64,000 nucleotides of DNA from an uncultured Pseudomonadota bacterium. Its GTDB lineage: Bacteria > Pseudomonadota > Alphaproteobacteria > Rs-D84. The notes beneath the pieces were generated by a model. The model saw only the letters and a program-made list of their open reading frames with translations, was not told where the DNA came from and ran no database searches. Below, one piece after another: positions 1 to 30,884 of the stretch (position 1 is its first letter; every line of letters begins with the position of its first letter). The DNA lies in assembly GCA_902793435.1 (NCBI GenBank), contig CADBDF010000001.1, positions 2,418 through 66,417 of the forward strand, read 5' to 3'. Position numbers and translations under genes: made by a program.

Positions 1-1188
1 GGCGTCACTGTCAAATTTTTTCACCAATTCATTTACCTTGGTGGTCAAAATTGTCTTGCGGGACGCGTATGCTTCGCCAAAAACATCTTCGCGTAAATCT
101 TCGTCTTGCAAATCAGCCTTGGTTGGTTTTTTGCCGTCATTAAATGTCATATAGCAATATTGGTTTGAACCAATTGTGTCGGTACATGCCGCGCGGAAGA
201 ATTTACGCACATCGCCCGCCATTTGTTTGCCAGTGCGCGTCGTATCAACCGTATCAACATCTAAACCACCAACAACAATCGATTGCGCCGCATTTACAAC
301 AGACCAATCAACATCTTCGACACAACTGTATGGGTTTTTCGCACATGCATTTGCAAAACATGTATCAACAACCTTGTAGCATGTATTTACCGCATTTGAT
401 GCCGCCAAAGCCGCACCGTCTTCGACCCATTGATGAACATCACCATCAGCCGTATATTGTCCCAATTGTTTATTAGATGGTTTTGTCGTTATTTTTTCAC
501 CAAATAATTGTTGGAACCCTTCTTTTTGGCAACGCGCCAATGTCGAATCGCACATTGTAGCCTGGCGTTTAAATTCGTCAGCAGATGTACATAATTCGAA
601 ATCTTCGCCACAAACATTATCTTTGGCCAAACATCTTTTATATTTTTTAACGCAATCCGCTGTATTTAATTTATTACGTGTTGCCGCGCCAATAATATCC
701 ATACCCATAACAGAACCATCAGTTGGATATGTATAACGCGCAACCTCACTGTTATTGGTGCCAGCAACATAGGAATCGACATTGGATAACGCGTCCAGAT
801 TACTGGTTCCCAATAATCTTTCAATCGCCGCAGGAGAGCATTGGTACAATGTACTGAAACATTCGGACATGTGTCCATGGAATAAAACATTTGTCGTGCA
901 TTCTTCAAATCCAGAACCACAGGCATTGTCGCCCTTCATACAATCGCGGTAATTATCAACGCATTCGGTATCGTCAATCAAACCCGTCCCGGTTGATGAC
1001 CCACTTGTCGATGACGATGTGGTCGTTGTAGCCGCAGATGATTTCATGACATTCGACAAAGATGGCAAACGACGCATCGCCGCCGCATTTGCCACAACGC
1101 CAACACGCGCAGGTGCAACCGCCGCCAAAGCCACGCCACATACGGACATAACCGCAATAAAACTAACAGAATTTTTGAAAAAATGCAT
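1..1188 (-). CDS. Secreted cysteine-rich protein, 3' end runs off the window (start ATG at 1188..1186)
   Basis: Manual translation of the minus strand from 1188 gives MHFFKNSVSFIAVMSVCGVALAAVAPA..., a signal-peptide-like start followed by a Cys-rich, Ser/Thr-rich sequence. The frame appears open to the window edge, and the ORF track omits it because no stop lies in the window. No family recognised. Confidence 0.45.
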   Translation of the reverse strand, partial: MHFFKNSVSFIAVMSVCGVALAAVAPARVGVVANAAAMRRLPSLSNVMKSSAATTTTSSSTSGSSTGTGLIDDTECVDNYRDCMKGDNACGSGFEECTTNVLFHGHMSECFSTLYQCSPAAIERLLGTSNLDALSNVDSYVAGTNNSEVARYTYPTDGSVMGMDIIGAATRNKLNTADCVKKYKRCLAKDNVCGEDFELCTSADEFKRQATMCDSTLARCQKEGFQQLFGEKITTKPSNKQLGQYTADGDVHQWVEDGAALAASNAVNTCYKVVDTCFANACAKNPYSCVEDVDWSVVNAAQSIVVGGLDVDTVDTTRTGKQMAGDVRKFFRAACTDTIGSNQYCYMTFNDGKKPTKADLQDEDLREDVFGEAYASRKTILTTKVNELVKKFDSDA

Positions 1189-1510: not shown

Positions 1511-2464
1511 TTATGAATTTTCTAAAATTTCTTTTAATTCCATCATATCGGCGGGCAATGGCGCCTTGAAAGTCATTTGTTTATGGTTTATAGGGTGTTT
1601 AAACGACAAATATGATGCATGCAACATTTGACCGTTGTGCGTCTTTAAAAATTCCAGCAACTCTGGATTTTTAACACTGCCCAATCTGGTTGTACCACGA
1701 CCATAGATTGGGTCGCACAAAACTGGAAAACCATGCGCCGATAAATGAACCCTGATTTGATGAGTGCGCCCGGTTAGCAAATTACATTTAAACTGTGAAA
1801 TACCAACCGTCCCCCACGCATCAACCACCAAAACCTCGGTCGTGGCAGGTTTGCCCCCGGATTTCACCATTGTCATTTTTTGTCTGTTGCGTGACGAACG
1901 CGCAATATTACCAGTTATCGTTGCACTTTCCCAACTTGGCACACCCCAAACAAACGCGTCATATTTACGCGTTAAATCGTGGGTTGAAAACATCTTGACC
2001 AATTCACGATATGCGGCATCTGTTTTTGCAAACACCATAACCCCAGATGTATCTTTGTCCAAACGATGAACAACCCCAGGTCGAACATCGCCACCAATTG
2101 ATGCCAACGATGTATAACACAACAAATTTTGAACCAATGTCCCAGTTTTGTTTCCAGCCGATGGATACATCACAACACCGCGCGGTTTATTTATCACAAT
2201 AATATCATCGTCTTGGTATAAAATATCCAGGTCAAAATCACATGAAATATTATCAGCCGCCACAGTTGCCCGCGGTGCATCAGGAACAATCACAATATAC
2301 AATTCACCAACGCGGACTTTGTCAGAAAACTTTACAGATGTTCCGCCACGTGATACAGAAAACTTTTGAATTTCACTACGCGAAAATTCAGGCATTTTGG
2401 ATGCTAAAAATTTATCAAGCCGTATGCCAACACTATCGTCATCAACAATAAATTCACGTTGCAT
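1511..2464 (-). CDS. rluD: 23S rRNA pseudouridine synthase, RluA/RluD family
   Basis: N-terminal S4-like region followed by the catalytic HRLDKDTSGVMVFAKTD motif; 317 aa. Confidence 0.8.
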   Translation of the reverse strand: MQREFIVDDDSVGIRLDKFLASKMPEFSRSEIQKFSVSRGGTSVKFSDKVRVGELYIVIVPDAPRATVAADNISCDFDLDILYQDDDIIVINKPRGVVMYPSAGNKTGTLVQNLLCYTSLASIGGDVRPGVVHRLDKDTSGVMVFAKTDAAYRELVKMFSTHDLTRKYDAFVWGVPSWESATITGNIARSSRNRQKMTMVKSGGKPATTEVLVVDAWGTVGISQFKCNLLTGRTHQIRVHLSAHGFPVLCDPIYGRGTTRLGSVKNPELLEFLKTHNGQMLHASYLSFKHPINHKQMTFKAPLPADMMELKEILENS

Positions 2465-2473
2465 TTTTAACCT

Positions 2474-2950
2474 TTATTTATACTTTGACCAATCGGGTCC
2501 CTTGTCACATTTTGACAAATCAATTTCCAATTCATAATCGCCCGATACATCACATGTTAAAATTCCGGTTGTTTCCGCCTGTTCTGCGTCCGCCCCGGCA
2601 TTGCGCCACGCAAATTTAATTTCACGCGGTGGATATATGCACACCAGGCGCAATTTATTTTCAGTTTTGCCAAATGAATCCAACCAAACACGAACGGAAT
2701 CAGCCTCGCCATAGCATGGAAAAGAATCCAAGTAATACAAAATCAAACCATTTTTTAACAACGATTTATCTGTTCCAACAAATTTACCCGTATATTGCGC
2801 CAACGGCAACCCTGTTATACCTGACCAATCCACAGTCGTTGAAAAAATACTGACACGCGGACCAATTGGTGCCGGTTGTGGTGGTGTGGTGGTATCTGCA
2901 AACGCAGGCACATAAAACAAACACGCAAGAAATGCAATTATTTTCTTCAT
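2474..2950 (-). CDS. Secreted hypothetical protein (signal peptide MKKIIAFLACLFYVPAFA), last gene of the prepilin-like operon
   Basis: Cleavable-looking signal peptide. A 4 bp overlap with the upstream zinc-ribbon gene implies translational coupling. Confidence 0.45.
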   Translation of the reverse strand: MKKIIAFLACLFYVPAFADTTTPPQPAPIGPRVSIFSTTVDWSGITGLPLAQYTGKFVGTDKSLLKNGLILYYLDSFPCYGEADSVRVWLDSFGKTENKLRLVCIYPPREIKFAWRNAGADAEQAETTGILTCDVSGDYELEIDLSKCDKGPDWSKYK

Positions 2951-3459
2951 TTTTCAAACTCCCCCAATTTTACAGAAATCTTTTTTACACCCGCCGATGG
3001 CGCACGCAAAGTATAAACAAATGCCGCACGCGCCCCAGATTCCAAAATTGGAACAGATGGGGTAAATTGTTCGCCAGAACCAATCTGCTTTCCATTTTCG
3101 TCGTACGATAAAACAATTATGTTTGGTGGGCTGTAAAATTCATCACTGCGATTTTCAATTATGCCCGATACAATGAAATGATTTATACCATTTCCGTCAG
3201 GTGCCAATTCTGTTTTGACGATTGATGCCGCCAATGGCGATTTTGATTCCATGTGCGAACGATATGTCGATACCGCAACAATCGAAAATATCACCGCAGA
3301 TATCAATGCGCATAATGCCGCCAAAAATAATAACAATGGATTTTTTCTGGCCCGGGTTTTAATCATCCATGAATGACCACAAATTGCACATTTAACCGGC
3401 ACCGCAGGTATTTTGGGTATCGTATATTCTGTTTTACAAAAATCACATTTTATTTTCAT
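2947..3459 (-). CDS. Zinc-ribbon (MJ0042-type CxxC...CxxC) single-pass membrane protein with a periplasmic domain; DUF3426-like architecture
   Basis: N-terminal CDFC...CAICG zinc ribbon, then a hydrophobic helix LLLFLAALCALISAVIFSIVAV, then a domain of about 100 aa. Confidence 0.5.
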   Translation of the reverse strand: MKIKCDFCKTEYTIPKIPAVPVKCAICGHSWMIKTRARKNPLLLFLAALCALISAVIFSIVAVSTYRSHMESKSPLAASIVKTELAPDGNGINHFIVSGIIENRSDEFYSPPNIIVLSYDENGKQIGSGEQFTPSVPILESGARAAFVYTLRAPSAGVKKISVKLGEFEK

Positions 3460-3481
3460 AACATACCTTTTATAGCATAAA

Positions 3482-4798
3482 TTATTGTAATTTCAACAAA
3501 CGATATTTTGCACGCACATCCGCAGCAATTTTATTCAACGCATTTTGATAATCAGCAACCGTCGCATTTGCATTGGCAGCAATAGATTTAAATGTTCGAC
3601 CGGCATTTGTTGTCGTATCAAATTCGGCACGCGGTAAATAACCAATCATTCTGTTCAAATCACCCAAAAACAAATCGTTAAAATTTGCAGATGAACTGCT
3701 GGCGTCCCAATAATAATTTGGATTTTGTGGGTCACTGATTTTTGATAAAACAGTTAATTTCGGGGTAATCGAACCCGCATAACCAACCGTCACATGCATT
3801 GCAGTAATACTGCCATAGCGCATTTTTACAGAACCATTTACAGTTAAAATTACAGGTTTGCCGTTTGCGTTATCTATGGTTAATGCCGGCAAAGTCAAAT
3901 TCGTCACCAGCAAATCGTTCGTTGTAAAAGATGAAAATTTACCCGTATCGGTCAAAGACAAACGACCAGATATTTCTAAATTTCGCGAATCCGATGTCAA
4001 AGAACCTGATACAGTCGCACTCTTGGTTGTAAATAAACTGTCAATCGTTGTGCGATTATCAAAAATCATATTGCGTGATGTTATTTTTCCAATGGTTAAA
4101 AATTCATCAAAAGAACCATCAATAAAACTCATATCTTTGACACCAATAATATCATGACCGCCCAAGTTTAATGACGAACGCATTGTCGCATCGTCTGGGT
4201 CATTTGATGGAACGCGCCACAGGTATAACGCATTATCACGATTTACCGTTGTTGTTCCAACCAACCCAGATGCCGCCGTCACACCCAAATCTGCAACAGA
4301 TGCACGCCAAGAATCATTTGCACCGTATGCTTTATTGCCATCAATAAAGCCAACCGCACCCCCAGACATATTTACAATTTGATGGGTTCGAAAAGGTGTA
4401 ATTTTATCCGATTCATAAACAACGATTCCTTGCAAAGTGGCCTGGCCATTAAAATCACGCGATTTTAAAACACGCAATTGATATTTAACATTTTTATCTG
4501 CGGCAATTTCTGTATCCAACCCATATTTTTCCAAATCAGCCAATTCAACACGTGTAATATTACGACCATAAGGCTTTAACATAGTTTCACGATTATCAAT
4601 AATATAACGTTCCAATGCGTTTTGTATTTCTGTCATCTGTTTTGTGACGACAATATTTTCACGACGTTCAATCGCCGAACGTTGATATTTAAACACAAAC
4701 GGAATTATCAACATAGCCAGCGCAACCGACAATAACAATTCCACCAGCATATTGCCGCTTTGATTCGTATTAAAAAATTTTATATTGTTTCGTTTCAT
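3482..4798 (-). CDS. Giant prepilin-like (pseudopilin-like) protein, 438 aa
   Basis: Class III signal: ...QSG|NMLVELLLSVALAMLII, with Gly at -1, Glu at +5 and a hydrophobic helix. Long S/T/N/G-rich C-terminal region. Shares a 4 bp overlap with the upstream gene. Confidence 0.55.
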   Translation of the reverse strand: MKRNNIKFFNTNQSGNMLVELLLSVALAMLIIPFVFKYQRSAIERRENIVVTKQMTEIQNALERYIIDNRETMLKPYGRNITRVELADLEKYGLDTEIAADKNVKYQLRVLKSRDFNGQATLQGIVVYESDKITPFRTHQIVNMSGGAVGFIDGNKAYGANDSWRASVADLGVTAASGLVGTTTVNRDNALYLWRVPSNDPDDATMRSSLNLGGHDIIGVKDMSFIDGSFDEFLTIGKITSRNMIFDNRTTIDSLFTTKSATVSGSLTSDSRNLEISGRLSLTDTGKFSSFTTNDLLVTNLTLPALTIDNANGKPVILTVNGSVKMRYGSITAMHVTVGYAGSITPKLTVLSKISDPQNPNYYWDASSSSANFNDLFLGDLNRMIGYLPRAEFDTTTNAGRTFKSIAANANATVADYQNALNKIAADVRAKYRLLKLQ

Positions 4799-6069
4799 TG
4801 TTCAGGCACACTTTCTTTGGTTTGCCAATCAGATGCCATAATCGCACTGAATTCATCTTTGTTTGGTGTTTGTGATATTGTTGTTCGTCCCAATTTAAAG
4901 GTCGAAAAACTGGGCATTTGATTTGACGGGAAAGACCAATTACCAATCTTTAATGGTGCGGACCCAGACATTAACAATTCACCAGACACCGTTAATCCAA
5001 AATCACCATAAAACACCATGTCATTTGCACTGATATATGGTGTATGAACAGAATTCGATGATATCGCAGTAAAAGCATTGATTGTTCGATTACTGGACGA
5101 TTTTAATTTAAACAAGTTTCCAATACGCACAGAATTTTTAATTGTTGCCCTGTCGGTAATAACCGCGCCAGTATTACTAAAATTATTTCCGTTCAGGTTA
5201 TTTGCAGTTATTGTGCGAAAACCACTGATATCGCCCAACGCACGTATCGTATCAATAACCGCATCGTTGCCTTGGATATTTGCACCAGACGAAAAATACG
5301 CAGAATCCGCGATAACATCATCAGCACGAATAAATGTTGTTTCTATATTTTTAACAGACACCGTTTCGGCATTTAATGTTCCAACATTTAACAAATCTTT
5401 GCCACCCATATTTAAATTGCGCAACATCGCATTTAAATTAAATTCTGCGGCATCTTTGGCAATTTCTTCTTCTGTTTTTTTGATTGTTATTTTTTTAGGC
5501 TTTGTTTCAACAATCGAATCCGATGCCGCACGATGCAAAAAATTCGTTCTGTCCATTGTCGCGAAATTATGCGATATACGATATATTAAATTACCAGGTT
5601 TAAAATCAGGACCCGATACCGCCCAACCTGTGCCATAGGCAACACCATCATCATCAACAATCGCGGCGGTGGCCCCAATTTGACGCGCAATTTGATTTAC
5701 CCGAACACGCGAATCGGTTATGTCAAATCCAAGATAAATATCTGTTATTGTTGTGCCACGAAATTGACGCTTGTCGATAAAACCACTGGATATAATTGGC
5801 GATATTTCTTGTAAATCTGTGGCGGTCATTTGTATTTCTGCAACATCAGGCCAATCTTCTTGGTGGGTACGAACAAAATTTAATGTTGCGTCTTGCAAAT
5901 CAACAATCTGTTGTGCCACAGAAATATTTTCCAAATCATCGTATGTGTTTGTCATTTGACGATACATAAACGGTGCCGCAACCGCAGCAATTGATATCGC
6001 CAATATCACCTCTAACAACGAGGCACCACGCGAATTATCGTTAAAGATTTTTGTTTTATATACAGTCAC
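4795..6069 (-). CDS. Giant prepilin-like protein, 424 aa
   Basis: Class III signal ...SRG|ASLLEVILAISIAAVAAPF with Glu at +5. The region after the helix is paralogous to its neighbours (ENI.V..Q...LQ pattern). Confidence 0.55.
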   Translation of the reverse strand: MTVYKTKIFNDNSRGASLLEVILAISIAAVAAPFMYRQMTNTYDDLENISVAQQIVDLQDATLNFVRTHQEDWPDVAEIQMTATDLQEISPIISSGFIDKRQFRGTTITDIYLGFDITDSRVRVNQIARQIGATAAIVDDDGVAYGTGWAVSGPDFKPGNLIYRISHNFATMDRTNFLHRAASDSIVETKPKKITIKKTEEEIAKDAAEFNLNAMLRNLNMGGKDLLNVGTLNAETVSVKNIETTFIRADDVIADSAYFSSGANIQGNDAVIDTIRALGDISGFRTITANNLNGNNFSNTGAVITDRATIKNSVRIGNLFKLKSSSNRTINAFTAISSNSVHTPYISANDMVFYGDFGLTVSGELLMSGSAPLKIGNWSFPSNQMPSFSTFKLGRTTISQTPNKDEFSAIMASDWQTKESVPEQ

Positions 6070-7417
6070 TGCGCCCCGCCATTAAACATTGTTTTGCATT
6101 TATTCTTTGTTCCAAACGTTCCCAGAACAAATATTCACACAGTATATGTTGTGCCAAAGAATTTGAATTATATACTTCGCCTAGACTTGCGACGATTGAA
6201 TTACATGTCACAGTTTCTGCATCATCTTTTTTTGGATTTTTCAAAATCGCAAAACCACCGTTATCAACATAAGACACACGAACATCGGGTAATACGGTTG
6301 TGCTGGCTGGACGAATATCTACAATAACCGCACCACTGTCGCCGGCATTTAACGCCTTGGACGTTTGGTCACGCAAAGTGACATGCGATGCAATCAGGGA
6401 ACCGGTTGAAATACCACTGGTTGAATTATACGATAAATGTCCAGAATCACCCGACACATAAACTTCTTGACCACTGCTGACATTTAAATAAGAACCGACA
6501 TCCAATGTTTCAGCACTCAACACGATATGTTCTGTTTCCAAATTACCGCGCACGTCCCATGTGACAGGCCCAGTAAATCCGGTACGCCCCGCCGTTAAAT
6601 CAAATGAATACACCGATGCAGAATCTGATTCAAAATTTCCCGTCGAACCGTATTGAGAAATTGTTTTTCCAAACACATTTTTTGCCCGCAAAGAACCACG
6701 TGTTAATGCCAATGCCGACCCACCAGATTTTGATTGGAATATACTTTTGTCTGCAACAAAATTTTTTATTTTATTTTTTGAATTCCTTTCGCCTTCATTC
6801 CCAGCAATATCCAATGTATCAAAATTTGCCACCCCAGATTCCAAATTATGCCCAATCACACTATTTGTATTTTCTATCGCAAAACCATTCATGTTCAAAT
6901 CTGTTAAAAATCCAGAATTATTTATGTCGGTTTCATTACGACGAACAACATCTTGGTATAATGTATTCAAAGGAATACCTACAATCAATCCGTCTTTACT
7001 TTTTTGTGCATAAAATCCAACACGACGAACCATTTCGGCAATTTGCATATTTGAAATTTTACCACCCGATACAACCAATGTTCCACCAACGCTTGCCTCG
7101 TCTTTATCAACAATCAAATAAATATCTTGCCCGAACGCAGTACGCGGAACATACCCCAAAGGCAAACCGTATGGTTCCAATGTATCTGCAAAATCCGGAC
7201 CACGAATAATTGTTCGACCATATGGCAAACTATCAACATTTTCACGAATAAAAATTCGTGCCGCAGTTTGTGCGGTATCAATTTGATGCGATGCAGAATA
7301 CATTTTTGCATCAACATCATTTACAATTAAACGATTTGTTAAAACCGGCATAAAAAGAAACAGCAAAGATATTGCCAGCAACGCCTGTAATAAAAAATTT
7401 CCCCTCTGGTTATGCAA
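6056..7417 (-). CDS. Giant prepilin-like protein lacking Glu+5 (GspK/PilX-like minor pseudopilin feature), 453 aa
   Basis: N-terminus ...QRG|NFLLQALLAISLLFLF has Gln instead of Glu at +5. It is the first gene of the operon; an AT-rich promoter region lies upstream. Confidence 0.55.
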   Translation of the reverse strand: MHNQRGNFLLQALLAISLLFLFMPVLTNRLIVNDVDAKMYSASHQIDTAQTAARIFIRENVDSLPYGRTIIRGPDFADTLEPYGLPLGYVPRTAFGQDIYLIVDKDEASVGGTLVVSGGKISNMQIAEMVRRVGFYAQKSKDGLIVGIPLNTLYQDVVRRNETDINNSGFLTDLNMNGFAIENTNSVIGHNLESGVANFDTLDIAGNEGERNSKNKIKNFVADKSIFQSKSGGSALALTRGSLRAKNVFGKTISQYGSTGNFESDSASVYSFDLTAGRTGFTGPVTWDVRGNLETEHIVLSAETLDVGSYLNVSSGQEVYVSGDSGHLSYNSTSGISTGSLIASHVTLRDQTSKALNAGDSGAVIVDIRPASTTVLPDVRVSYVDNGGFAILKNPKKDDAETVTCNSIVASLGEVYNSNSLAQHILCEYLFWERLEQRINAKQCLMAGRSDCI

Positions 7418-7583
7418 TAAAATCCCCTATTCTCTTTTTATATGTATATAGATTAGCAACTGAAAAAAGATATTGCAATCAGTTTTAAGATGTTTTATAT
7501 TACTGTCAGTTGTTAGTTGATTATTGTTAGAAATTTATATCAACTGAAAATTCCAAAAATAAAAAATTATAAAAAGAAAAAAT

Positions 7584-7922
7584 ATGCAAAATAAAAAAAA
7601 TCAGTCTAATGTTGGTTTGATGATTCAACGGTGTCATAAATGGCGTGTGCGTCGCAAACAATTTATTGACCAAGCACGTAATACACCCGACGAAATCGAA
7701 CGTGAACGTTTATTGCAAGCGGCAGAACACTGTGTTCGTATGACAAACGCCGAACAAGAAAAAATTGATTCTATACGCGATTCAAAAGAAAAAGCCGCCG
7801 CTGTCGCAGCCGCCGAGGCCGAAATGAAGGCAGCAGATGCAAAAGACGACAATGCCGATACAGAAAAAACCGATACAGACGAAGAAATGGGCTTTCCTGA
7901 TTTTATCACTGGATTGAATTAA
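7584..7922 (+). CDS. Hypothetical small acidic protein (112 aa), uncertain
   Basis: ORF only. It sits between the pilin-operon promoter region and dnaX and has a charged C-terminus. No recognisable family. Confidence 0.25.
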   Translation: MQNKKNQSNVGLMIQRCHKWRVRRKQFIDQARNTPDEIERERLLQAAEHCVRMTNAEQEKIDSIRDSKEKAAAVAAAEAEMKAADAKDDNADTEKTDTDEEMGFPDFITGLN

Positions 7923-9555: not shown

Positions 9556-10014
9556 ATGACAAATGAATCTGGACGTTCTTTGATTGAAATGTTGGCAGTG
9601 TTGGCGATTGGTGCGGTTATGACCGCGGCGGCATACGGAACATACAATATGTTGCGAACAAACCAAACACGCAATTTGGCATTAAATGAAATGGAACAAA
9701 TTGCACGCAACACAAAGATATTATTGGAAACACGTGGTGATTATAACGGTGTGTCGGTTGATTATTTGATTAAGGCAGGCGCAATTACAAACCCAGATGC
9801 CCCAATCGGTGATGAAAACTGGTCAATAACATCATCAGTTGATGGAAAAACGTTTTCTATCAATTTAACTAATTTAACGCACAGCGATTGTTCTTATTTT
9901 GCAACAAAGAAAATCAGTTGGGCAAAATCTGTATCTGTGAACGGTTTAGAAAAAGCCGGTAGCGAAACATGTATATCGGCACCACGAAATTATATATCTA
10001 TCAATGTTGAATAA
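9556..10014 (+). CDS. Type IVa pilin-like protein (152 aa)
   Basis: Prepilin signal MTNESG|RSLIEMLAVLAIGAVM with Glu at +5, and a C-terminal Cys pair (SDCSYF...SETCIS) typical of the pilin D-region. Confidence 0.65.
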   Translation: MTNESGRSLIEMLAVLAIGAVMTAAAYGTYNMLRTNQTRNLALNEMEQIARNTKILLETRGDYNGVSVDYLIKAGAITNPDAPIGDENWSITSSVDGKTFSINLTNLTHSDCSYFATKKISWAKSVSVNGLEKAGSETCISAPRNYISINVE

Positions 10015-10678
10015 ATTAAAATATTTCTTTATTACACTATGTTTAACTGGCTGTATGCAATACACCAGTCCGGAACGTAATACATGGGATTATTATTTAA
10101 ATGGCGCCAGTTTTATGGATATGAACGAAGAATCTAAAATTGCAAAAAGACCAATATATCTTGGTAATGGCGGAAAAATACTTACCGCAACAAATGATGC
10201 AAAAAAATTAGAATATGGCGACAAGGCAACAAACGACAATATGGTCAGTGTCCAATATATGACAGAATTAGAACGCGATTTGTATGATGCCCTGCGTGCA
10301 GCAGGTGTATCGGTGGAACGCGCAGGCACAGACGTTGTTGTGATTTTGGTTCGTGGTGCGATTATGCGTATGGACGTTGCAGAAATATCATCAAATGGTG
10401 AAAATTTATTGGGAACGATTGCGCGTATTTTACGTAAATACAATTCAACCTATATTGAAATTGCGGGTTATACAGATGCGATGACTGATACATCGGCTGC
10501 AAAACGCATGTCTTTGGATATGGCGGAACGCGTTGGTGTATTTTTGGCGCGCAAAGAAATAAAACCCAGTCGCATGTTTATTGTGGGACGCGGTTCGGCA
10601 CGACCAATCGCCGCCCAGGATAGCATTGGGCGACTGACCAATCGCAGAATCGAAATTCGTATTGCACCAGCACGATAA
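10004..10678 (+). CDS. OmpA/MotB-family lipoprotein (peptidoglycan-binding C-terminal domain)
   Basis: Lipobox LTGC and the OmpA_C-like motif IEIAGYTDAMTDTSAAKRMSLDMAERV...NRRIEIRI. Overlaps the pilin gene by 11 bp. Confidence 0.65.
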   Translation: MLNKLKYFFITLCLTGCMQYTSPERNTWDYYLNGASFMDMNEESKIAKRPIYLGNGGKILTATNDAKKLEYGDKATNDNMVSVQYMTELERDLYDALRAAGVSVERAGTDVVVILVRGAIMRMDVAEISSNGENLLGTIARILRKYNSTYIEIAGYTDAMTDTSAAKRMSLDMAERVGVFLARKEIKPSRMFIVGRGSARPIAAQDSIGRLTNRRIEIRIAPAR

Positions 10679-11633: not shown

Positions 11634-11838
11634 AAACCGGTCTAAAAAAAACCTAGGTTTAAAAGCAACAACTTTTTTCAAAAATTTTAAAATTCACTTT
11701 TTTGTAAAAACAATGCGTTATTCAAAATCGCAATTCGCCAGATGTGGTGTCGAAAAAAACCTAGGTTTTTTGTATATTTGTTATATAGCGAAAAAGCGCG
11801 GATTTCCGCCAGTTTATAAAGTCGAGAGAGTTGCAAAA
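11634..11838 (+). promoter_or_regulatory. Conserved leader/promoter of paralog A with two AAACCTAGGTTT palindromes (11649..11660, 11757..11768)
   Basis: Near-identical, in inverted orientation, to 24483..24735 upstream of paralog B. It is AT-rich and contains perfect 12-bp palindromes about 108 bp apart. Confidence 0.55.
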
Positions 11839-13152
11839 ATGTCTGCAAAATGTGCATTTTTTAGTGTTTTTCAAAAAATAATGGTATTTTGCTGTGCCAT
11901 ATTTTTTGGATTTGCCGACGCATTTTCCGCAAATTTGCCAAGTGGGTATACGGAATTGGAATATATCGAATCCAGTGGAACACAATATATTGATACGGGA
12001 ATAAACGCCACTGGTAACCTTGATATTCAAGCCACTGTGAAAATATTATCCATGGATTCTTCTATTTCTGGTTTGTTTGGTGCCAGGAATATAAGTAACA
12101 ATTCAACTCTTGATGCGGTTTGGTTAGGGGTTTCAACATCAAGAACTTTGTGGCTATACAATAACAATACTACTAATAACCATTTGCCTGTTTGGGACAC
12201 CAATAAATGGTATGATGTGCATACGATTAATGGTGATTTATATTTAGATGCTTCGAAAATTGCTACATACGAAACCGCGACATTTTCTGGACCGTTAATA
12301 TATTTATTCTCGAGCAATAATGGTGGTTCGATACAGAAGGGGGGTGGGAATTTTCAGTTTTCTAGTTTTAAGATAAAACAAAACAATACTCTTGTTCAAG
12401 ATTTAATTCCCGCGAAACGCGATAGTGACGGTGAAATCGGTATGTACGATACGGTCAGCAACACATTCTTTACCAACGCCGGTACTGGTACATTTACCGC
12501 CGGTCCGGAGGTGTTGAATCCATGCCGGAATTTGTTTGATTCATCAGCATTTAATACAGATGTTGGACAAACTAATACTTGGTTACATTTTCAAGTACCA
12601 AACGGCACATACACAATGAGTACTAATTTTCCTCCTCAAACAGGACAAGTATATACAAATGTTTGGGTTTTGGCAGGAAATGTAACATCTGGAATTGATA
12701 GTGCAACAAATGGTGTTTCTCTTGGCCACCCAAAAACAATAACTGTCACAGACGGCTGGTATTCAGTGGTGTACAGAAGTGGCATACCTAATATTCCGAG
12801 AAATCCAAAAGATTATAACTGGCAACTTGAACAAGGTTCAACAGCAACCGAGTATGTGCCGTATAATGCCAGTTGCCACAATACAAATGGAATCAAAATC
12901 GCAACCACTGCATATAACAGCGCGCGTTTTAGTCCTGTTATGACTGATTTAAATACTACTATTGCTACAATTCGCGATATCGTGACGAATACGATAAATC
13001 AAACCGCCGCAATAGCCAGTTTGCAAGCGGACAAGCAGACCCGCCCGGAAGATGCTTGTCCCGCCGGCAAAAAATGCCTACTGGTCGAAACCGAAGAAAA
13101 CGGCGTTATTGTCCCGCATTGGTTCCCGATAATAGAGGCACCCGAAGAATAA
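11839..13152 (+). CDS. Secreted phage-receptor-binding-protein-like protein, paralog A (alternative start 11881)
   Basis: Begins with a conserved leader ORF MSAKCAFFSVFQKI, then a copy-specific signal peptide MVFCCAIFFGFADAFSA. Central motifs YTELEYIESSGTQYIDTG and NWQLEQGSTATEYVPY. The C-terminal 90 aa (IATTAYN...CPAGKKCLLVETEENGVIVPHWFPIIEAPEE) is about 85% identical to paralog B. Confidence 0.6.
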   Translation: MSAKCAFFSVFQKIMVFCCAIFFGFADAFSANLPSGYTELEYIESSGTQYIDTGINATGNLDIQATVKILSMDSSISGLFGARNISNNSTLDAVWLGVSTSRTLWLYNNNTTNNHLPVWDTNKWYDVHTINGDLYLDASKIATYETATFSGPLIYLFSSNNGGSIQKGGGNFQFSSFKIKQNNTLVQDLIPAKRDSDGEIGMYDTVSNTFFTNAGTGTFTAGPEVLNPCRNLFDSSAFNTDVGQTNTWLHFQVPNGTYTMSTNFPPQTGQVYTNVWVLAGNVTSGIDSATNGVSLGHPKTITVTDGWYSVVYRSGIPNIPRNPKDYNWQLEQGSTATEYVPYNASCHNTNGIKIATTAYNSARFSPVMTDLNTTIATIRDIVTNTINQTAAIASLQADKQTRPEDACPAGKKCLLVETEENGVIVPHWFPIIEAPEE

Positions 13153-22919: not shown

Positions 22920-23030
22920 ACCCCCGCCACCCGCTTTCGCTTCGCTTCAGCGAGGTTCCCCGCCCCAAGCGTCACCCACAAAATTTTACAAATTTTGCGG
23001 GGCCCGATTGGGGTGGAATTATTATTCGGG
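22919..23030. repeat. GC-rich mosaic repeat element, full-length type (CCCCCGCCACCCGCTTTCGCTTCGCTTCAGCGAGG...AT-rich module...GGGGTGGAATT)
   Basis: About 90% identical to 33638..33752 and to the shorter 63428..63495. Abuts the stop codon of paralog B. Confidence 0.6.
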
Positions 23031-24362
23031 TGCCTCTATAATTGGATACCAGTGCGGGACAATAACACCGTTTTCCTCGGTTTCGACCAATAAACATTTT
23101 TTGCCGGCGGGGCATTGTTCGTCCGGGCGGGTCTGCTTGTCCGCTTGCAAACTGGCTATCGCGGCGGTTTGATTTATCGTTTTTGTGACTATTTCGCGAA
23201 TTGTTGCAATCGTAGTATTTAAATCAGTCACCACTGGATTAAATTGCGCAGTATTATATGCCGTTGTCGCGATTTTGATACCCAATTCCAGGCTATTCGA
23301 CACAAGTGTTTGACCGTTTTGCAACAAAGTACGAATCGTTGTGGCAATCGTTCCATTATTCTGTATAACCGGCGCGGTGGTCATGGTCTGTCCCGCAACA
23401 GATTCCGTTGTCGGTTCTGCAAGTGGGTATATTACGATTACAGGTGTTCCCGCTGCATACTGGTCGGCAATATATCTTTTCCAATCGGTAACTGTTGGAA
23501 AATCAGTTACAATATTATAGAAGTTTAAATCTGCACTGCCATCTATTTCGATTTTAGACGACACAGATTCTGTTATATTGCTTAATGGCACAGTTTTTGC
23601 TCTTGCAATACTTCTAAGGACCATAGTCGTATACCCACTCCTCCAAGGACTCCAATTCTCCTTTCCATTAAACACCATGACACCGACTTTGCGGGTAATG
23701 ACGCCAGTGTTGATATTTTGTTCATCGGCATAGTCACCAACCGCAAACAAAGTTTCCACATTCGCGGAATGATTCGCACTGTCGCGCACAGTCTCCCCCG
23801 CCCCTTCGGTGTAAATTGAACCGTATGGATGATACGTCGTTGCGGTTGAACCTTTTTCAAACTGTGCATTTGCATAAGTTGTACTCGCATTACCGCCATC
23901 ACGTCCTGTGATTCTAATAAATGCGACACCAGACGGAATATTTATCTGATATGCACTTGATGCTTGTGCCAAGACAGATGATACAAAATTTTTATTATTA
24001 TCATAAAAACAATGATATGCTGGAACACCTAGTGAACTCGTAAAACCAGATAAATAATATGTTGTATTTTGCTGAACAGGTATATAGTCAGAATATCCCC
24101 ATACGATAGACCCTGTTTTTGTTCCGTCTTGAGCCAAATAATCGCCATGTGTCCAAGTGCTTACTTTAAACAAATTCTTACTCAGTTTTATCGCCCCATT
24201 ATTGGTCACGATATTGACGGGATTGCTGGGGGTTGGGGTGCCGGATTGCTCGGTTGCACCAACGACGGTGACACTGGATATCGATTCGCCATCGGCGTAT
24301 ACAGGGGATGCGGTAATTAGCACCGTTAACGCAAGCAGTAAAGATGATAAAAACTTTTTCAT
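23022..24362 (-). CDS. Secreted phage-receptor-binding-protein-like protein, paralog B (start at MKKFLSSLLLALTVLITASPVYA)
   Basis: Own signal peptide and an unrelated central region containing AQFEKGSTATTYHPY. The C-terminal IATTAYN...CPAGKKCLLVETEENGVIVPHWYPIIEAPE is conserved with paralog A. The ORF-track extension to 24488 reads through a repeat element and is unlikely to be translated. Confidence 0.6.
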   Translation of the reverse strand: MKKFLSSLLLALTVLITASPVYADGESISSVTVVGATEQSGTPTPSNPVNIVTNNGAIKLSKNLFKVSTWTHGDYLAQDGTKTGSIVWGYSDYIPVQQNTTYYLSGFTSSLGVPAYHCFYDNNKNFVSSVLAQASSAYQINIPSGVAFIRITGRDGGNASTTYANAQFEKGSTATTYHPYGSIYTEGAGETVRDSANHSANVETLFAVGDYADEQNINTGVITRKVGVMVFNGKENWSPWRSGYTTMVLRSIARAKTVPLSNITESVSSKIEIDGSADLNFYNIVTDFPTVTDWKRYIADQYAAGTPVIVIYPLAEPTTESVAGQTMTTAPVIQNNGTIATTIRTLLQNGQTLVSNSLELGIKIATTAYNTAQFNPVVTDLNTTIATIREIVTKTINQTAAIASLQADKQTRPDEQCPAGKKCLLVETEENGVIVPHWYPIIEAPE

Positions 24363-24482
24363 ACTCCCCCGTTTTCTTTTCCTTTGCCTATAACCCCCTC
24401 CGTCACTCTCGTTGCGTTGCAACTTGGTGACCCGCCTCCCCGGTCGCGCTTGCGCGCTGGGGCGGAATTCTGGACGCACAAA
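24363..24482. repeat. GC-rich repeat element inserted between the conserved leader and the paralog B start codon (…GGGGCGGAATTCTGG terminus)
   Basis: Shares CCCCCTCC and GGGGCGGAATT modules with the other elements. Absent from the homologous position in copy A. Truncates the conserved MSAK leader ORF (24359..24601). Confidence 0.5.
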
Positions 24483-24735
24483 AACCACCAGATTTTTTGT
24501 AAAACACCAAAAAATGCACGTTTTGCAGACATTTTCGCAACTCTCTCGATTTTATAAACTGGCGGAAATCCGCACCTTTTTGCCATGTTTTGATTATACA
24601 AAAAACCTAGGTTTTTTTCGACACCACATCTGGCAAATTGCGATTTTGAATAACGTATTGTTTTTACAAAAAAAGTGAATTTTAAAATTTTTGAAAAAAG
24701 TTGTTGCTTTTAAACCTAGGTTTTTTTTAGACCGG
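24483..24735 (-). promoter_or_regulatory. Conserved leader/promoter of paralog B (inverted copy of 11634..11880), with AAACCTAGGTTT palindromes at 24603..24614 and 24712..24723
   Basis: Reverse complement matches copy A almost base-for-base, including the leader ORF start MSAK(R)AFFGVLQKI. Confidence 0.55.
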
Positions 24736-27347: not shown

Positions 27348-29621
27348 ATGGTTGAAAAATTCAAGATTTTATCTGTTGGCGGTTCGTCCAAAGGATTAAA
27401 CATTTTTAAATCGTCGGCTTATAAAGAGCACGAGGCGGGGCAATTCGCCCAAATGTTTTGGATATTCCGCTGGAACGCTATGATTTGGTGCATTTGCGCA
27501 CTGATGTTTGGGTTTGCATTTATTATCGAACATATTTTCAGGTATGGGTGGTCGCCCGCATCGTTGCATTGGTCTGGTATTTTTTTGGGACATGCATTGC
27601 ATTCTTTTGGGCTGTCTGTGGTTGCAGAGGTTCCTAATTGGATTATGCGTGCAATATTTAACCCTGATTTCGAATGTATTGTGCCAATTATACCTATTAT
27701 CGCTTTCTATTTTATGGCAGATGATACATTGACCAAGGAATTTAACCCACATGGCAAAGATATGTACGACGAAAAATCTTCGCGCAAGGCAAATGCAAAT
27801 GATATTAAAAAAATGGGAAAATTTGCATGGAAAACAAAAATGGGTTTGTTCCAAGGCTTTATGATGGTTTTGGGATATTTCAAAGACGGAAAAACATCTA
27901 AACCTTTGATGATGGACGAAACATTGTCTGTGTTGTGTGTGGCGCCTCCGGGAACCGGTAAAACCGCCGGGGTTGTGATTCCTACGATTGTTGAATGTGA
28001 TAATGTTTCCATGATTATCAATGACCCAAAGCCTGAATTGAAACAATTAACATCCGCATATCGCGCGACCATTGGTCCGGTGTTCATTATGAATTGGGCG
28101 GGACAAGACGATCCAGAACGCGGAATATTTTATCCATCTTGGAATCCGTTATCCCCAGAACATGTCCCAACCGAAGTCGAACAACGCGATTTGTATGTTG
28201 ATACAATATGCAAAGTGTTGGTACCTGATGCAACCGGGTCAAGTGCAGACCCGCACTGGTCAATATCTGGACGCGCAGGATTATCTGGATTTATTCAATA
28301 TATTGTTTCAAAAATAGAACGCGCCAAAGCCGATGATTATTTTTATGCACGTTTGCAATCTGGCGAATTTAACCAAGAAGACGCAAATGTTTTGATGGAT
28401 TATTATTTATCTATGTCGTCTAATCAAAACGCGTATGCGGCATTGGGATTATTACAACGCGGTGAATTAAATACGATGAATTATGTGCATGTTGGGTCTT
28501 GGCGACATATCCCAGATGCTTGGTTGGGTAAAGAGGCATCTTTGTCCATGATTTTGGATTGGTTAAACGCATCACAATTGGCAAACGCCGCACAAATGGA
28601 AGAACGGCGCAAACAAGGCGACCAAATGGTTGCGTTGGCTGACCCAATGAAAGACGTTTTAGAAGATGCTGTAAATGAGGCTGTAGAGTTTGCATATTCG
28701 CATCGTGCGGTATTGGAATTGACGCAACTGGCAAATACACCTGATAAAGAACGCGGGTCTATTTTATCAACAATTATGGCAGGATTAGGCATTTTCCGTA
28801 ATGCCGCAGTGCGCAACAGAACATCACATTCCGATTTCCATTTCGAAGATTTAAGAGGATTAAAAGACCCACGTGATGGCAAAATTAAACCTGTATCGGT
28901 GTATCTATCTATTAACATGGTCGATGCCCAGGCTTTGAACCCAATTACTGGAATTTTCATTGAATTGATGTCTAATTATCTGTTGGTAAATACCCCAGAT
29001 GTTATTAGCACGTCTGGTAAAAGATTGGGGCCATACCCGGTATTGTTCGTGTTGGACGAAATGCCAAAAATGCAAAAATTAGATGCGGTTATCCAAGGAC
29101 CTGATTTGGGACGTGGGCAACAAATTTCTTATCTGATTATTGGCCAGGATTTACACCAAATCCAAGAAAAATATGGCGCGGACGCAGCGGCAACTATTAT
29201 TTCAACAACCGCGGCAAAAATCATTATGCGTCAAAATGACCCGGATACCGCAAAACGCTTTTCCGACATGATTGGAAAAGAAATCAAAAAAGAAAAAAAG
29301 AAAGACAAAGACGGAAAAGAAACCATTGAAACCAAGGCACCAAAAGATTTATACTCGCCAATGGATATTATGACCCTGCCCGAAGGCAAGCAGATTGTTT
29401 TGTTCCAAGGTTGGTATCATAGACCGATTGAGGCCGACCAAGAAAGACATTTTTTGGAAAAGAACGATATTCAAAAGAAACTGCACGCCAAAGTGGCAAT
29501 GGGCGAATCTGCACCTATGCCTGAATTCTTGGTACCGGCACACTATCGTGCGATGGGGTATAGTGGCCCAATTAAATTCTTGGACCCAACCACAAAGACA
29601 ATTAAAGTTTTGGCTGAATAA
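27348..29621 (+). CDS. Type IV secretion coupling protein (VirD4/TraG family), orphan
   Basis: N-terminal TM helices, Walker A VLCVAPPGTGKTAGVVIPT and Walker B/arginine-finger region VLFVLDEMPKM...GRGQQISYLIIGQD. A Lys-rich C-terminal extension is present. No relaxase or VirB genes are in the window. Confidence 0.65.
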   Translation: MVEKFKILSVGGSSKGLNIFKSSAYKEHEAGQFAQMFWIFRWNAMIWCICALMFGFAFIIEHIFRYGWSPASLHWSGIFLGHALHSFGLSVVAEVPNWIMRAIFNPDFECIVPIIPIIAFYFMADDTLTKEFNPHGKDMYDEKSSRKANANDIKKMGKFAWKTKMGLFQGFMMVLGYFKDGKTSKPLMMDETLSVLCVAPPGTGKTAGVVIPTIVECDNVSMIINDPKPELKQLTSAYRATIGPVFIMNWAGQDDPERGIFYPSWNPLSPEHVPTEVEQRDLYVDTICKVLVPDATGSSADPHWSISGRAGLSGFIQYIVSKIERAKADDYFYARLQSGEFNQEDANVLMDYYLSMSSNQNAYAALGLLQRGELNTMNYVHVGSWRHIPDAWLGKEASLSMILDWLNASQLANAAQMEERRKQGDQMVALADPMKDVLEDAVNEAVEFAYSHRAVLELTQLANTPDKERGSILSTIMAGLGIFRNAAVRNRTSHSDFHFEDLRGLKDPRDGKIKPVSVYLSINMVDAQALNPITGIFIELMSNYLLVNTPDVISTSGKRLGPYPVLFVLDEMPKMQKLDAVIQGPDLGRGQQISYLIIGQDLHQIQEKYGADAAATIISTTAAKIIMRQNDPDTAKRFSDMIGKEIKKEKKKDKDGKETIETKAPKDLYSPMDIMTLPEGKQIVLFQGWYHRPIEADQERHFLEKNDIQKKLHAKVAMGESAPMPEFLVPAHYRAMGYSGPIKFLDPTTKTIKVLAE

Positions 29622-30884
29622 TTGATGAAAAGTTTTGTATCTGCTTTTGTTATTTTGACGATATTAAACGGATGCGCAACAATCGCCACCAGCGAATTAA
29701 CCGAATTGCGCGATGGATTCGCAAATGATAATTTTGTTGTGGCGGCTGATAAATATTCAAATGGCACCGATATTCAATCCCAAGATAGTTTGCAGTTAAT
29801 GATGACGGGACTTGCCAATTTTCAAGAAAAAAATTATCAAGTCAGCGATGATGCTTTTGAAGAATTCAACCGGAGAAATTATGACACCACCGGGGGCAGC
29901 ATTATTCGCGAAGCAAAAATATTTCTGGGTGGCGGTTTGGCGGCTGAATACAAACCGTCTATGATGGATTCTTTGTTTGTTTCGTATTATCAAATATGGG
30001 ACGCGATTGGTTTGGGGCATAAAAACGATGTACGCGTAATTATTAATCAATCTTATGCACGACAACAAGAAATGTCACGCGCATACGCCGACTTGGTTGA
30101 AAAAAACCAATCACGTATAACAGATGAAAACAAAGGTTTATTGGATAAAATACAACAAGAAAGCGCCACATGGGGTGCATATACCGATATTATGAATCCT
30201 GCGTTAATGTATTTATCTGGGATATGGTTTTTGAATTCTGGTGATTTTAATGATGCCGAAACATATTTAAAACGCGCGGTTGGTATGGCGCCAAAAAACA
30301 CATACGTTGCAACAGATTTAAAATCTGCAGAATCAAAATCGCGACCAAATAATACAACATGGATTTTTATTGAATCAGGATTCGCACCAATATTACATGA
30401 ACAAACGATATCTTTGCCGGTTATTACCAGCAACGGTATAATTGTTCCAGAAATATCAATTGCGGAACCCGTATTTAACAACAGCAAATTTTCTGTTGGT
30501 GGCGCACAAGATTTGGCTGATGTAAATGCAATGTTTATGACCGAATTTAATGAATACAGAATAAATGATGCTTTGCGTGCATGGAGTTCCGCTGTCGCAC
30601 GCACAATCGCCCAGGCGACCGCATATAATTCAAACAGCAAATATGCTGGTTTGATTGGTTTGGGTTCCACTTTATTTTCAATATCAACCACAAATGCAGA
30701 AGTGCGTTCTTGGGTGACATTACCAGAAAAAATTAGTGTTATTCGCGTAAAAACAGGCGACTTGATTGCAAACAATTTTAATGATAAACTGGGCACTGAT
30801 ATAAAATTACCGAAATCTGGGAATCATTTAATTTATATGCGTCAATTAAGTAAAAAACCAATTGTGCATATATTCGATTTATAA
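29622..30884 (+). CDS. Lipoprotein of unknown function (420 aa), co-operonic with the LpoB-like gene
   Basis: Lipobox ILNGCA. Start codon directly abuts the T4CP stop. No family confidently recognised. Confidence 0.45.
   Translation: MMKSFVSAFVILTILNGCATIATSELTELRDGFANDNFVVAADKYSNGTDIQSQDSLQLMMTGLANFQEKNYQVSDDAFEEFNRRNYDTTGGSIIREAKIFLGGGLAAEYKPSMMDSLFVSYYQIWDAIGLGHKNDVRVIINQSYARQQEMSRAYADLVEKNQSRITDENKGLLDKIQQESATWGAYTDIMNPALMYLSGIWFLNSGDFNDAETYLKRAVGMAPKNTYVATDLKSAESKSRPNNTTWIFIESGFAPILHEQTISLPVITSNGIIVPEISIAEPVFNNSKFSVGGAQDLADVNAMFMTEFNEYRINDALRAWSSAVARTIAQATAYNSNSKYAGLIGLGSTLFSISTTNAEVRSWVTLPEKISVIRVKTGDLIANNFNDKLGTDIKLPKSGNHLIYMRQLSKKPIVHIFDL

Follow-up and report, generated by a model that had tools for sequence, protein, structure and literature searches.

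The 64,000-nt stretch of DNA analyzed here (hereafter the window) comes from an uncultured Pseudomonadota bacterium of the lineage Candidatus Enterousia, order Rs-D84, Alphaproteobacteria (GenBank assembly GCA_902793435.1, contig CADBDF010000001.1, positions 2,418 to 66,417). It contains five tightly packed minus-strand genes, g1–g5, which span positions 7417–2474 in the list of open reading frames of the window (Table 1). We consider it probable (roughly 60%) that this operon supplies the set of minor pilins for a type IVb-like thin pilus, with g1, g2, and g3 serving as a fixed three-part tip for cell adhesion. A preliminary description of this DNA had proposed a minor-pilin tip or priming complex carrying large adhesin or effector domains or, alternatively, a component of an uncharacterized type IV filament class, and it had named the β-helix among the folds to be sought in the C-terminal domains. 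The homology of g3 to PilV, the paralogy of the three genes, the lack of Glu+5 in g1 alone, and a moderately supported, adhesin-like β-helix in the structural model of g3 favor the former proposal. The latter is not retained; since g3 is PilV-like and the neighboring pilin is PilS-like, the set is placed among the PilS/PilV type IVb thin pili and not in a new filament class.

Relationship of g1–g3 to PilV

The Pfam family Shufflon_N (PF04917) represents the constant region of PilV, a minor pilin that serves IncI plasmids as the adhesin at the tip of their type IVb thin pilus. g3 matches this family with 29.0 bits, above the gathering cut-off of 27.5. When a profile of the g3 family was searched against 1.84 billion representative sequences, 347 relatives were obtained, including an annotated Salmonella PilV at an expectation value (E) of 9e-12. 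An hhalign comparison of the g3 family with this Salmonella PilV gave 97% (E 7.6e-11) over 266 columns, in which LYRYSVDGHPALNQMQTSIDMDANDLNNV is paired with LYLWRVPSNDPDDATMRSSLNLGGHDIIGV. Likewise, a tblastn search with g3 alone against 72,556 plasmids returned 14 records, all 14 of them annotated as pilV, and the reverse search with PilV of a Pantoea plasmid matched g3 in 81 sequences (the loci described below plus the window), with E 1.9e-13 in the window. By these sequence comparisons, g3 is a chromosomal homologue of PilV. PilV is an adhesin that selects recipient cells and binds the surface of another bacterium (PMC9045228).

Profile alignments identify g1 and g2 as diverged paralogues of g3 over the first 230–245 columns: hhalign gave 96% (E 3.9e-9, 244 columns) for g1 and 98% (E 2.2e-13, 232 columns) for g2 against the g3 family, and the motif LN(M/L)GGxD(I/L)xN is common to all three proteins. 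The C-terminal halves of g1 and g2 align neither to g3 nor to one another. g1 and g2 are older tandem paralogues of g3 that have kept the N-terminal pilin module. Compared directly with a real PilV, g2 shows weak similarity (58%, E 1e-4), and Shufflon_N is matched by 4 of 42 g2 orthologues at E up to 1; the PilV link of g1 runs solely through g3. In the orthologue alignment of g1, the invariant residues are G6, F8, L9, Q11, C405, C427, C444, and C452, so that its C-terminus carries four invariant cysteines.

The g3 profile also matches metagenome proteins of ~900–1200 amino acids (aa; P0330, P0343, P0355, and others) over their first ~230 residues only, and P0355 scores 57.6 bits against Shufflon_N. 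Since these proteins share only the N-terminal ~230 residues, PilV-type N-terminal modules are joined to much larger C-terminal cargo in organisms elsewhere. A further homology search with an outgroup profile returned mostly Enterousia proteins again. Identity with TadE/F/G of the Tad pilus was rejected, as there was no family match and the motif context was wrong. A prophage or tail-fibre origin was also rejected, since no viral relatives were detected in a scan of IMG/VR.

Class III Signals

The N-terminal signals of the four pilin-like proteins are MHNQRG↓NFLLQ in g1, ...NSRG↓ASLLE in g2, ...NQSG↓NMLVE in g3, and MTNESG↓RSLIE in the neighboring pilin, where the arrow marks the putative cleavage site. 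As in type IV pilins, each consists of a short basic leader ending in Gly and followed by ~20 hydrophobic residues. A pattern scan of the 387 open frames of ≥60 aa in the window matched only these four proteins and an internal segment of a multi-pass membrane protein. Because the pattern is near-unique among these frames, the signals are more than a chance occurrence.

A scan of one genome per GTDB species yielded 80 loci, many of them labelled Candidatus Enterousia and one of them from the metagenome-assembled genome (MAG) KS320-82 (PMC12306168). Gly−1 is invariant across the orthologues of all four proteins (g1, 75/75; g2, 79/79; g3, 81/81; pilin, 74/74). Position +5 is Glu in 78 of 79 g2, 81 of 81 g3, and 74 of 74 pilin orthologues, and Gln in all 75 g1 orthologues; Glu+5 is absent from g1 alone, and from g1 in every species. 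Invariance of Gly−1 and Glu+5 over such deep divergence argues, indirectly, that signal processing and assembly persist in this lineage. The unusual start codons are also largely conserved, TTG of g1 in 57 of 75 species and GTG of g2 in 64 of 78. Public gene calls often place the start of g1 at Met23 (431 aa; region 7417–7349, minus strand), and the signal of g1 is lost in such calls for this reason.

Predicted Structure of g3

A first AlphaFold run with 23 close orthologues of g3 gave a predicted local distance difference test (pLDDT) score of 48 and was unusable, whereas an alignment of 65 sequences that included distant relatives gave a model with a pLDDT of 75.6. The model is composed of a type IVb pilin-like module (residues ~1–190), a β-helix-like middle, and a helical C-terminus, with pLDDT values of 80–90 for residues 20–185, 60–70 for the middle, and 80–89 for the C-terminal helices. 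As expected for a pilin fold, a long N-terminal α-helix is packed on a β-sheet head. The middle part is predicted to be a β-helix resembling those of adhesins; the evidence for this assignment is only moderate, since Foldseek gave no significant match. Against BFVD, Foldseek gave one marginal unnamed match (template modeling score 0.15), and the g3-family profile showed no sequence similarity to PDB chains past the N-terminal helix.

Conservation and Selection

The gene order around the operon, with skp, ompA, the pilin gene, dnaX, and a 112-aa gene on one side and g1–g2–g3–g4–g5–rluD on the other, is the same in essentially all 80 species loci. Full-length in-frame orthologues of g1–g5 are present in at least 75 of the 80 loci, the remainder being truncated loci, and they occupy a fixed chromosomal site among housekeeping genes. 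The same synteny is observed in two distant rumen lineages (P0268 and P0260), in which g1, g2, and g3 have 493–531, 414–455, and 469–653 aa, respectively; these differences in length indicate that the C-terminal parts change in size over long distances. Within Enterousia, conservation extends to the C-terminal halves to the same degree as to the N-terminal ones, with ~50% identity at the deepest splits. The median ratio of nonsynonymous to synonymous substitution rates (dN/dS) ranges from 0.15 to 0.27 over six genes (g1, 0.15; g2, 0.20; g5, 0.19), which shows that the g1–g5 block is under purifying selection.

There is no shufflon at the locus. A search of positions 2300–7700 for shufflon or inversion repeats found none beyond pairs of chance size and no sfx-type repeats, and no recombinase or integrase is among the gene families found in the window.

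The Neighboring Pilin and OmpA-Family Lipoprotein

A pilin gene is located at the same position in 73 loci. Its product in the window reaches 22.6 bits against N_methyl (cut-off 21.2), and PilS (PF08805) is matched by 36 of 39 of its orthologues at E up to 1, the best at 1e-5. G6, E11, C112, and C139 are invariant, the last two forming a C-terminal cysteine (disulfide) pair. This pilin is the probable shaft subunit of the thin pilus. The start of an OmpA-family lipoprotein gene overlaps the pilin stop by 11 nt and is followed by skp. The lipoprotein gene adjoins the pilin gene in all loci that reach that far and in the two distant rumen lineages; from this coupling and synteny only, the lipoprotein is possibly an envelope partner of the filament.

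g4 and g5

g4 is composed of a cytoplasmic CxxC-x15-CxxC zinc ribbon, one transmembrane segment, and a periplasmic DUF3426/FxLYD-type domain, and C5, C8, C24, and C27 of the ribbon are invariant. Zn_ribbon_4 was detected in 42 of 42 orthologues and DUF3426 in 31 of 42 (best E 2.7e-6). Among NCBIfam models, the window copy reaches the cut-offs of MJ0042_CXXC (22.0 against 20.9) and FxLYD (23.4 against 23) and no other. g4 also resembles, though weakly (E 0.012), a PDB chain of 49 residues (2nb9) that carries the label "Uncharacterized protein" and that we take to be the zinc finger of ZitP. As this sole direct sequence link is weak, g4 is called ZitP-like and not a ZitP orthologue.

g4 and ZitP are built in the same order, from an N-terminal CxxC...CxxC zinc ribbon through a single transmembrane segment to a periplasmic DUF3426 domain. 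In Caulobacter, assembly of the Tad pilus requires the periplasmic DUF3426 domain of ZitP, which acts via CpaM and the secretin; binding of PopZ and recruitment of CpaM by ZitP are likewise known from Caulobacter alone (PMC5182063). The protein itself occurs widely in Alphaproteobacteria (PMC5182063, PMC12637624). Yet, differences are present: g4 has 170 aa and a CxxC spacing of 15, whereas ZitP has 311 aa and a spacing of 19; g4 is part of the pilin operon, but zitP is not part of the cpa locus; and g4 accompanies PilS/PilV-type pilins, whereas ZitP accompanies a Flp-type pilin.

g5, which is present in 80 of 80 loci, begins with a putative signal peptide (...PAFA↓D), which is followed by a low-complexity linker and then by a ~125-aa domain in which C79, C104, C133, and C148 are invariant. 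It gave no sequence match in Pfam, NCBIfam, or the PDB, and no relatives were detectable outside the clade.

Organization of the Locus and Other Features of the Window

Within the operon, g1 and g2 overlap by 14 nt and g2/g3 and g4/g5 by 4 nt each (ATGA), and the gap between g3 and g4 is 22 nt. The preliminary description is thereby borne out in its account of three consecutive, coupled genes for proteins of 424–453 aa, as it is, from the results above, in assigning class III signals to all three, in noting that the product of the first gene lacks Glu+5, and in describing a zinc-ribbon/transmembrane/DUF3426-like protein and a small secreted protein downstream; it was also correct that the window holds no assembly machinery. 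Only its term "giant" was overstated, since these lengths are ordinary for the PilV family (Salmonella PilV, 447 aa).

Table 1. Coordinates of the operon and adjacent features in the window.
Feature	Position	Strand	Description
g1	6056..7417	-	453 aa, TTG start; PilV-like minor prepilin; first gene of the operon
g2	4795..6069	-	424 aa, GTG start overlapping the end of g1; PilV-like minor prepilin
g3	3482..4798	-	438 aa; PilV homologue
g4	2947..3459	-	170 aa; ZitP-like bitopic protein
g5	2474..2950	-	158 aa; secreted protein, orphan family
rluD-like pseudouridine synthase	1511..2464	-	TIGR00005, 243 bits; 9 nt past g5
Pilin, candidate major subunit	9556..10014	+	152 aa; PilS-like (type IVb-like); 27 nt past dnaX
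OmpA-family lipoprotein	10004..10678	+	Pfam OmpA, 45.9 bits
Divergent intergenic region, g1/112-aa gene	7418..7583		166 bp, AT-rich; presumed operon promoter region

The sequence AGGGGA sits 7 nt before the TTG start of g1. A consensus scan of the region upstream of g1 gave nothing above the shuffled expectation, and the operon promoter was therefore not located. At the other end, rluD follows g5 in every locus compared. It is probably co-transcribed with the operon and marks its 3′ border, without being a functional part of the set; a terminator-like hairpin at 1391–1377, past rluD, was the sole signal of the terminator scan. Upstream of g1 and divergent from it lie the 112-aa gene, dnaX, the pilin gene, the OmpA-family lipoprotein gene, and skp, and the remainder of the window contains housekeeping genes and one gene for a VirD4/TraG-type coupling protein. 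The GC content of the g1–g5 block resembles that of the rest of the window. The window is ~98% identical to MAG RUG14746, and homologues of the locus were found in uncultured gut Alphaproteobacteria only.

Several other genes of the window deserve description. The charged 112-aa protein encoded upstream of dnaX (7584–7922, plus strand) has no family match and shows 55–84% identity across all loci. YbaB, whose gene usually follows dnaX, is encoded in another part of the window; in a matching locus, a YbaB_DNA_bd gene was seen near what corresponds to 36.5 kb of the window. Directly past rluD, positions 1–1188 (minus strand) encode the N-terminus of a Cys-rich secreted protein of ~1151 aa without a family match, of which a full-length copy is found at L001:13611-17066. 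A protein of 989–1239 aa is encoded at this position in all relatives, the distant rumen lineages included; as the position is constant, the Cys-rich protein may share the surface system. The VirD4/TraG-type type IV coupling protein (27348–29621, plus strand) has 757 aa with an N-terminal extension of ~400 aa, and it scores 175 bits against Pfam T4SS-DNA_transf and 143 bits, under the cut-off, against its best NCBIfam model (CD1115 family). It is directly followed by a gene for a 420-aa protein resembling tetratricopeptide repeat proteins (29622–30884, plus strand), and apart from that of the coupling protein, the window showed no genes for type IV secretion. Finally, positions 11713–13152 (plus strand) and 23022–24488 (minus strand) encode proteins of 479 and 488 aa without a Pfam or NCBIfam family. 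The former has a hydrophobic N-terminus and a tail-fibre-like low-complexity composition, and the two look like paralogues, since a tblastn search with the former gave an 88% match inside the gene of the latter (locus L005).

Proposed Function and Alternative Explanations

In the proposed thin pilus, a prepilin peptidase would cut each protein after its invariant Gly, and g1, g2, and g3 would join through their hydrophobic N-terminal helices to form a three-subunit cap that primes the filament. g1, which never has Glu+5, would be located at the apex, as GspK is in type II secretion, and PilS-like subunits would polymerize below the cap. The exposed C-terminal domains of the β-helix type may recognize a conserved structure at the surface of another cell or of the host, and three fixed paralogues would stand in for the shufflon switching of the C-terminus of a single adhesin in IncI plasmids. 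The ZitP-like g4 would probably help to place or assemble the envelope machine, and g5, by analogy with TcpF and CofJ, may be a secreted tip partner or an assembly helper. What we infer in this model is cleavage, tip location, heterotrimer formation, subunit order, stoichiometry, the target of adhesion, and how g4 and g5 contribute.

Several observations weigh against such a pilus. Family scans with Pfam and NCBIfam over all genes of the window and its flanks detected no gene for T2SSE, T2SSF, Secretin, or Peptidase_A24. A search for the Walker A, His box, and Asp box motifs of T2SSE and the GxGDxK motif of A24 peptidases found none in 1.78 Mb from ~85 genomes, all of it sequence around one locus and covering only ~9% of a genome of ~0.9 Mb. 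Among ten IncI-type Pil proteins searched by tblastn against the window and 90 other loci, PilV was matched and the other nine were not, and the machinery is also absent around the locus in P0268 and P0260. The placement in a type IVb pil cluster that is typical of PilV (PilN secretin, PilQ ATPase, PilR platform, PilU peptidase) is thus not observed here; on the Pantoea plasmid, pilV lies beside genes for PilN, PilO2, PilP, an ATPase, a platform protein, PilS, and a transglycosylase, and one of the Yersinia plasmid matches is also annotated with an A24 peptidase. Moreover, the one published genome survey reports type IV pili for another lineage and does not report them for Rs-D84 (PMC12306168). 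At the protein level, the +1 residues (N, A, S, R) are unusual compared with those of known prepilins, the window pilin scores 19.7 bits against PilS, below the cut-off of 22, and its leader of 6 aa and mature length of 146 are unlike those of classical type IVb pilins. g1 shows no direct similarity to PilV beyond the N-terminal helix, the g3 model gave nothing against the PDB in Foldseek at E up to 0.001, and its β-helix segment has a pLDDT of only 60–70. Finally, with conservation equal in the C-terminal and N-terminal halves, there is no sign of an adhesin arms race.

Some of these observations would suit other explanations. One is a type II secretion-like pseudopilus, in which the pilin would be a GspG-like piston and g1–g3 a GspK/I/J-like tip, exporting a protein such as g5 and not adhering. 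It would account for the sub-threshold NCBIfam matches of g2 to GspI and of the pilin to GspH, for the public annotation of relatives as "PulG" or "type II secretion system protein", for the presence of one protein without Glu+5 among the three, as in GspK, and for the co-encoded small secreted protein. Export of this kind is known also from type IVb pili, which export TcpF and CofJ. However, the Gsp scores are far under their cut-offs (16.7 against 44.35 for GspI and 15.2 against 80 for GspH), the specific family matches are to PilV and PilS, GspI/J/K lack β-helix domains of ~200 aa, and no gspD, gspE, or gspF is present near the locus in any genome compared, so that a pseudopilus seems rather unlikely. 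The absence of a detected machine, the survey that lists no pili for Rs-D84 (PMC12306168), and the odd +1 residues would also fit a set of proteins that are neither processed nor polymerized, namely bitopic inner-membrane proteins that kept a pilin-like anchor after loss of the machine and now have periplasmic or envelope roles. This we regard as improbable: a plain anchor would not explain why Gly−1 and Glu+5 have stayed invariant in four separate genes while the proteins diverged by ~50%, the disulfide pair of the pilin is retained, the operon includes a gene for a ZitP-like pilus factor, and the sequence in which no machine was found amounts to only the 9% mentioned above.

Type IV pili and competence genes are retained by bacteria with reduced genomes, Patescibacteria among them. 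A competence-type pilus for uptake of DNA or nutrients, scavenging nucleic acids for an auxotrophic cell and primed by g1–g3, which would then not be cell adhesins, would suit a lineage that lacks biosynthetic pathways and standard transporters (PMC12306168), and conserved C-terminal domains would suit a generic ligand. Its probability is nevertheless low, since the detectable relatives are cell-binding PilV adhesins (PMC9045228), the predicted C-terminal fold is like adhesin β-helices and unlike known DNA-binding minor pilins, and neither comEC nor comEA is in the window. That PilV and PilS are plasmid-type families and that a VirD4/TraG-type coupling protein is encoded 20 kb away might point to an IncI-like conjugative element that was once integrated and now survives only as a decaying remnant without function. 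This explanation is largely refuted by the conservation of full-length genes at a fixed chromosomal site and their low dN/dS, and the GC content of the block, the lack of IMG/VR relatives, the absence of shufflon repeats, and the lack of a recombinase among the gene families found in the window make it more improbable still. A far-reaching extension of the thin-pilus model, in which the block would be the attachment organelle behind a partner-dependent life of the whole of Rs-D84, is unlikely in our estimation; the organelle would be a domesticated IncI-like thin pilus in which three fixed PilV paralogues, as a heterotrimeric tip, have taken over from the shufflon-switched adhesin. It would be built by a machine that is either non-canonical or so highly diverged that standard annotation overlooks it, perhaps acting with a VirD4-type secretion system, encoded 20 kb away, in exchanging material with the partner.

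Significance for the Enterousia Lineage

Enterousia belongs to Rs-D84, whose genomes are below 1 Mb (0.75–1.0 Mb) and lack respiration and the tricarboxylic acid cycle, and in which glycolysis is incomplete and standard nutrient transporters and biosynthetic pathways are missing; a partner-dependent life has been proposed for this order (PMC12306168). To date, no attachment structure has been described for Enterousia or Rs-D84. Since these genomes have shed most functions and yet keep ~5 kb under purifying selection in every species examined, the operon is a strong candidate for a contact device. Its putative surface proteins could be used for antibodies or for pull-downs coupled to fluorescence in situ hybridization to identify the partner. 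If the genomes truly lacked a filament machine, the finding would be much more surprising. The novelty of the set lies in a chromosomal, triplicated PilV without a shufflon, joined by a ZitP-like partner, in a gut lineage that has reduced genomes and probably depends on another organism, and this is the first genetic linkage of a ZitP-like protein with PilS/PilV-type pilins.

Comparison with Known Systems

Tapirins of Caldicellulosiruptor are β-helix adhesins encoded in type IV pilus loci. However, they are not pilins and have neither a class III signal nor a pilin module, and they share 8–13% sequence identity with the g3 model, in a matched part that has only moderate confidence. TcpB of the toxin-coregulated pilus of Vibrio cholerae and CofB of CFA/III of enterotoxigenic Escherichia coli form homotrimers of one gene product, whereas three genes are present here, one of them for a protein without Glu+5; g3 shows no sequence or fold relation to TcpB or CofB, and no relation between g5 and TcpF or CofJ was detected. 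In GspH-I-J-K and FimU-PilV-PilW-PilX, several co-transcribed minor (pseudo)pilins form a priming tip, and the apical subunit of the GspK/PilX type lacks Glu+5, like g1 in 75 of 75 species. Yet, there is no family-level match to these proteins, their subunits are small except for GspK, and their domain content differs.

The closest system is the thin pilus of IncI1 and IncI2 plasmids (R64, TP114), with PilS as the major pilin and PilV as the tip adhesin. g3 shares the N-terminal constant region of PilV (approximately residues 10–270), including the motif before the variable part, the size of ~440 aa is similar, and most orthologues of the neighboring pilin match the PilS family. On the other hand, plasmid pilV is flanked by the pilL–pilU machinery, which has no detectable homologues near the Enterousia locus, and the leader of the Enterousia pilin is short. 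In their C-terminal halves, the Enterousia and plasmid proteins are unrelated, and Salmonella PilV has a phage tail collar domain. Moreover, the Enterousia genes are chromosomal, amid housekeeping genes, and comprise three fixed paralogues, whereas the plasmids carry one gene whose C-termini are switched by a shufflon (sfx sites and the Rci recombinase). The Enterousia operon offers a test case of a plasmid-type mating adhesin that may have turned into a fixed chromosomal organelle, and a natural three-gene alternative to shufflon switching.

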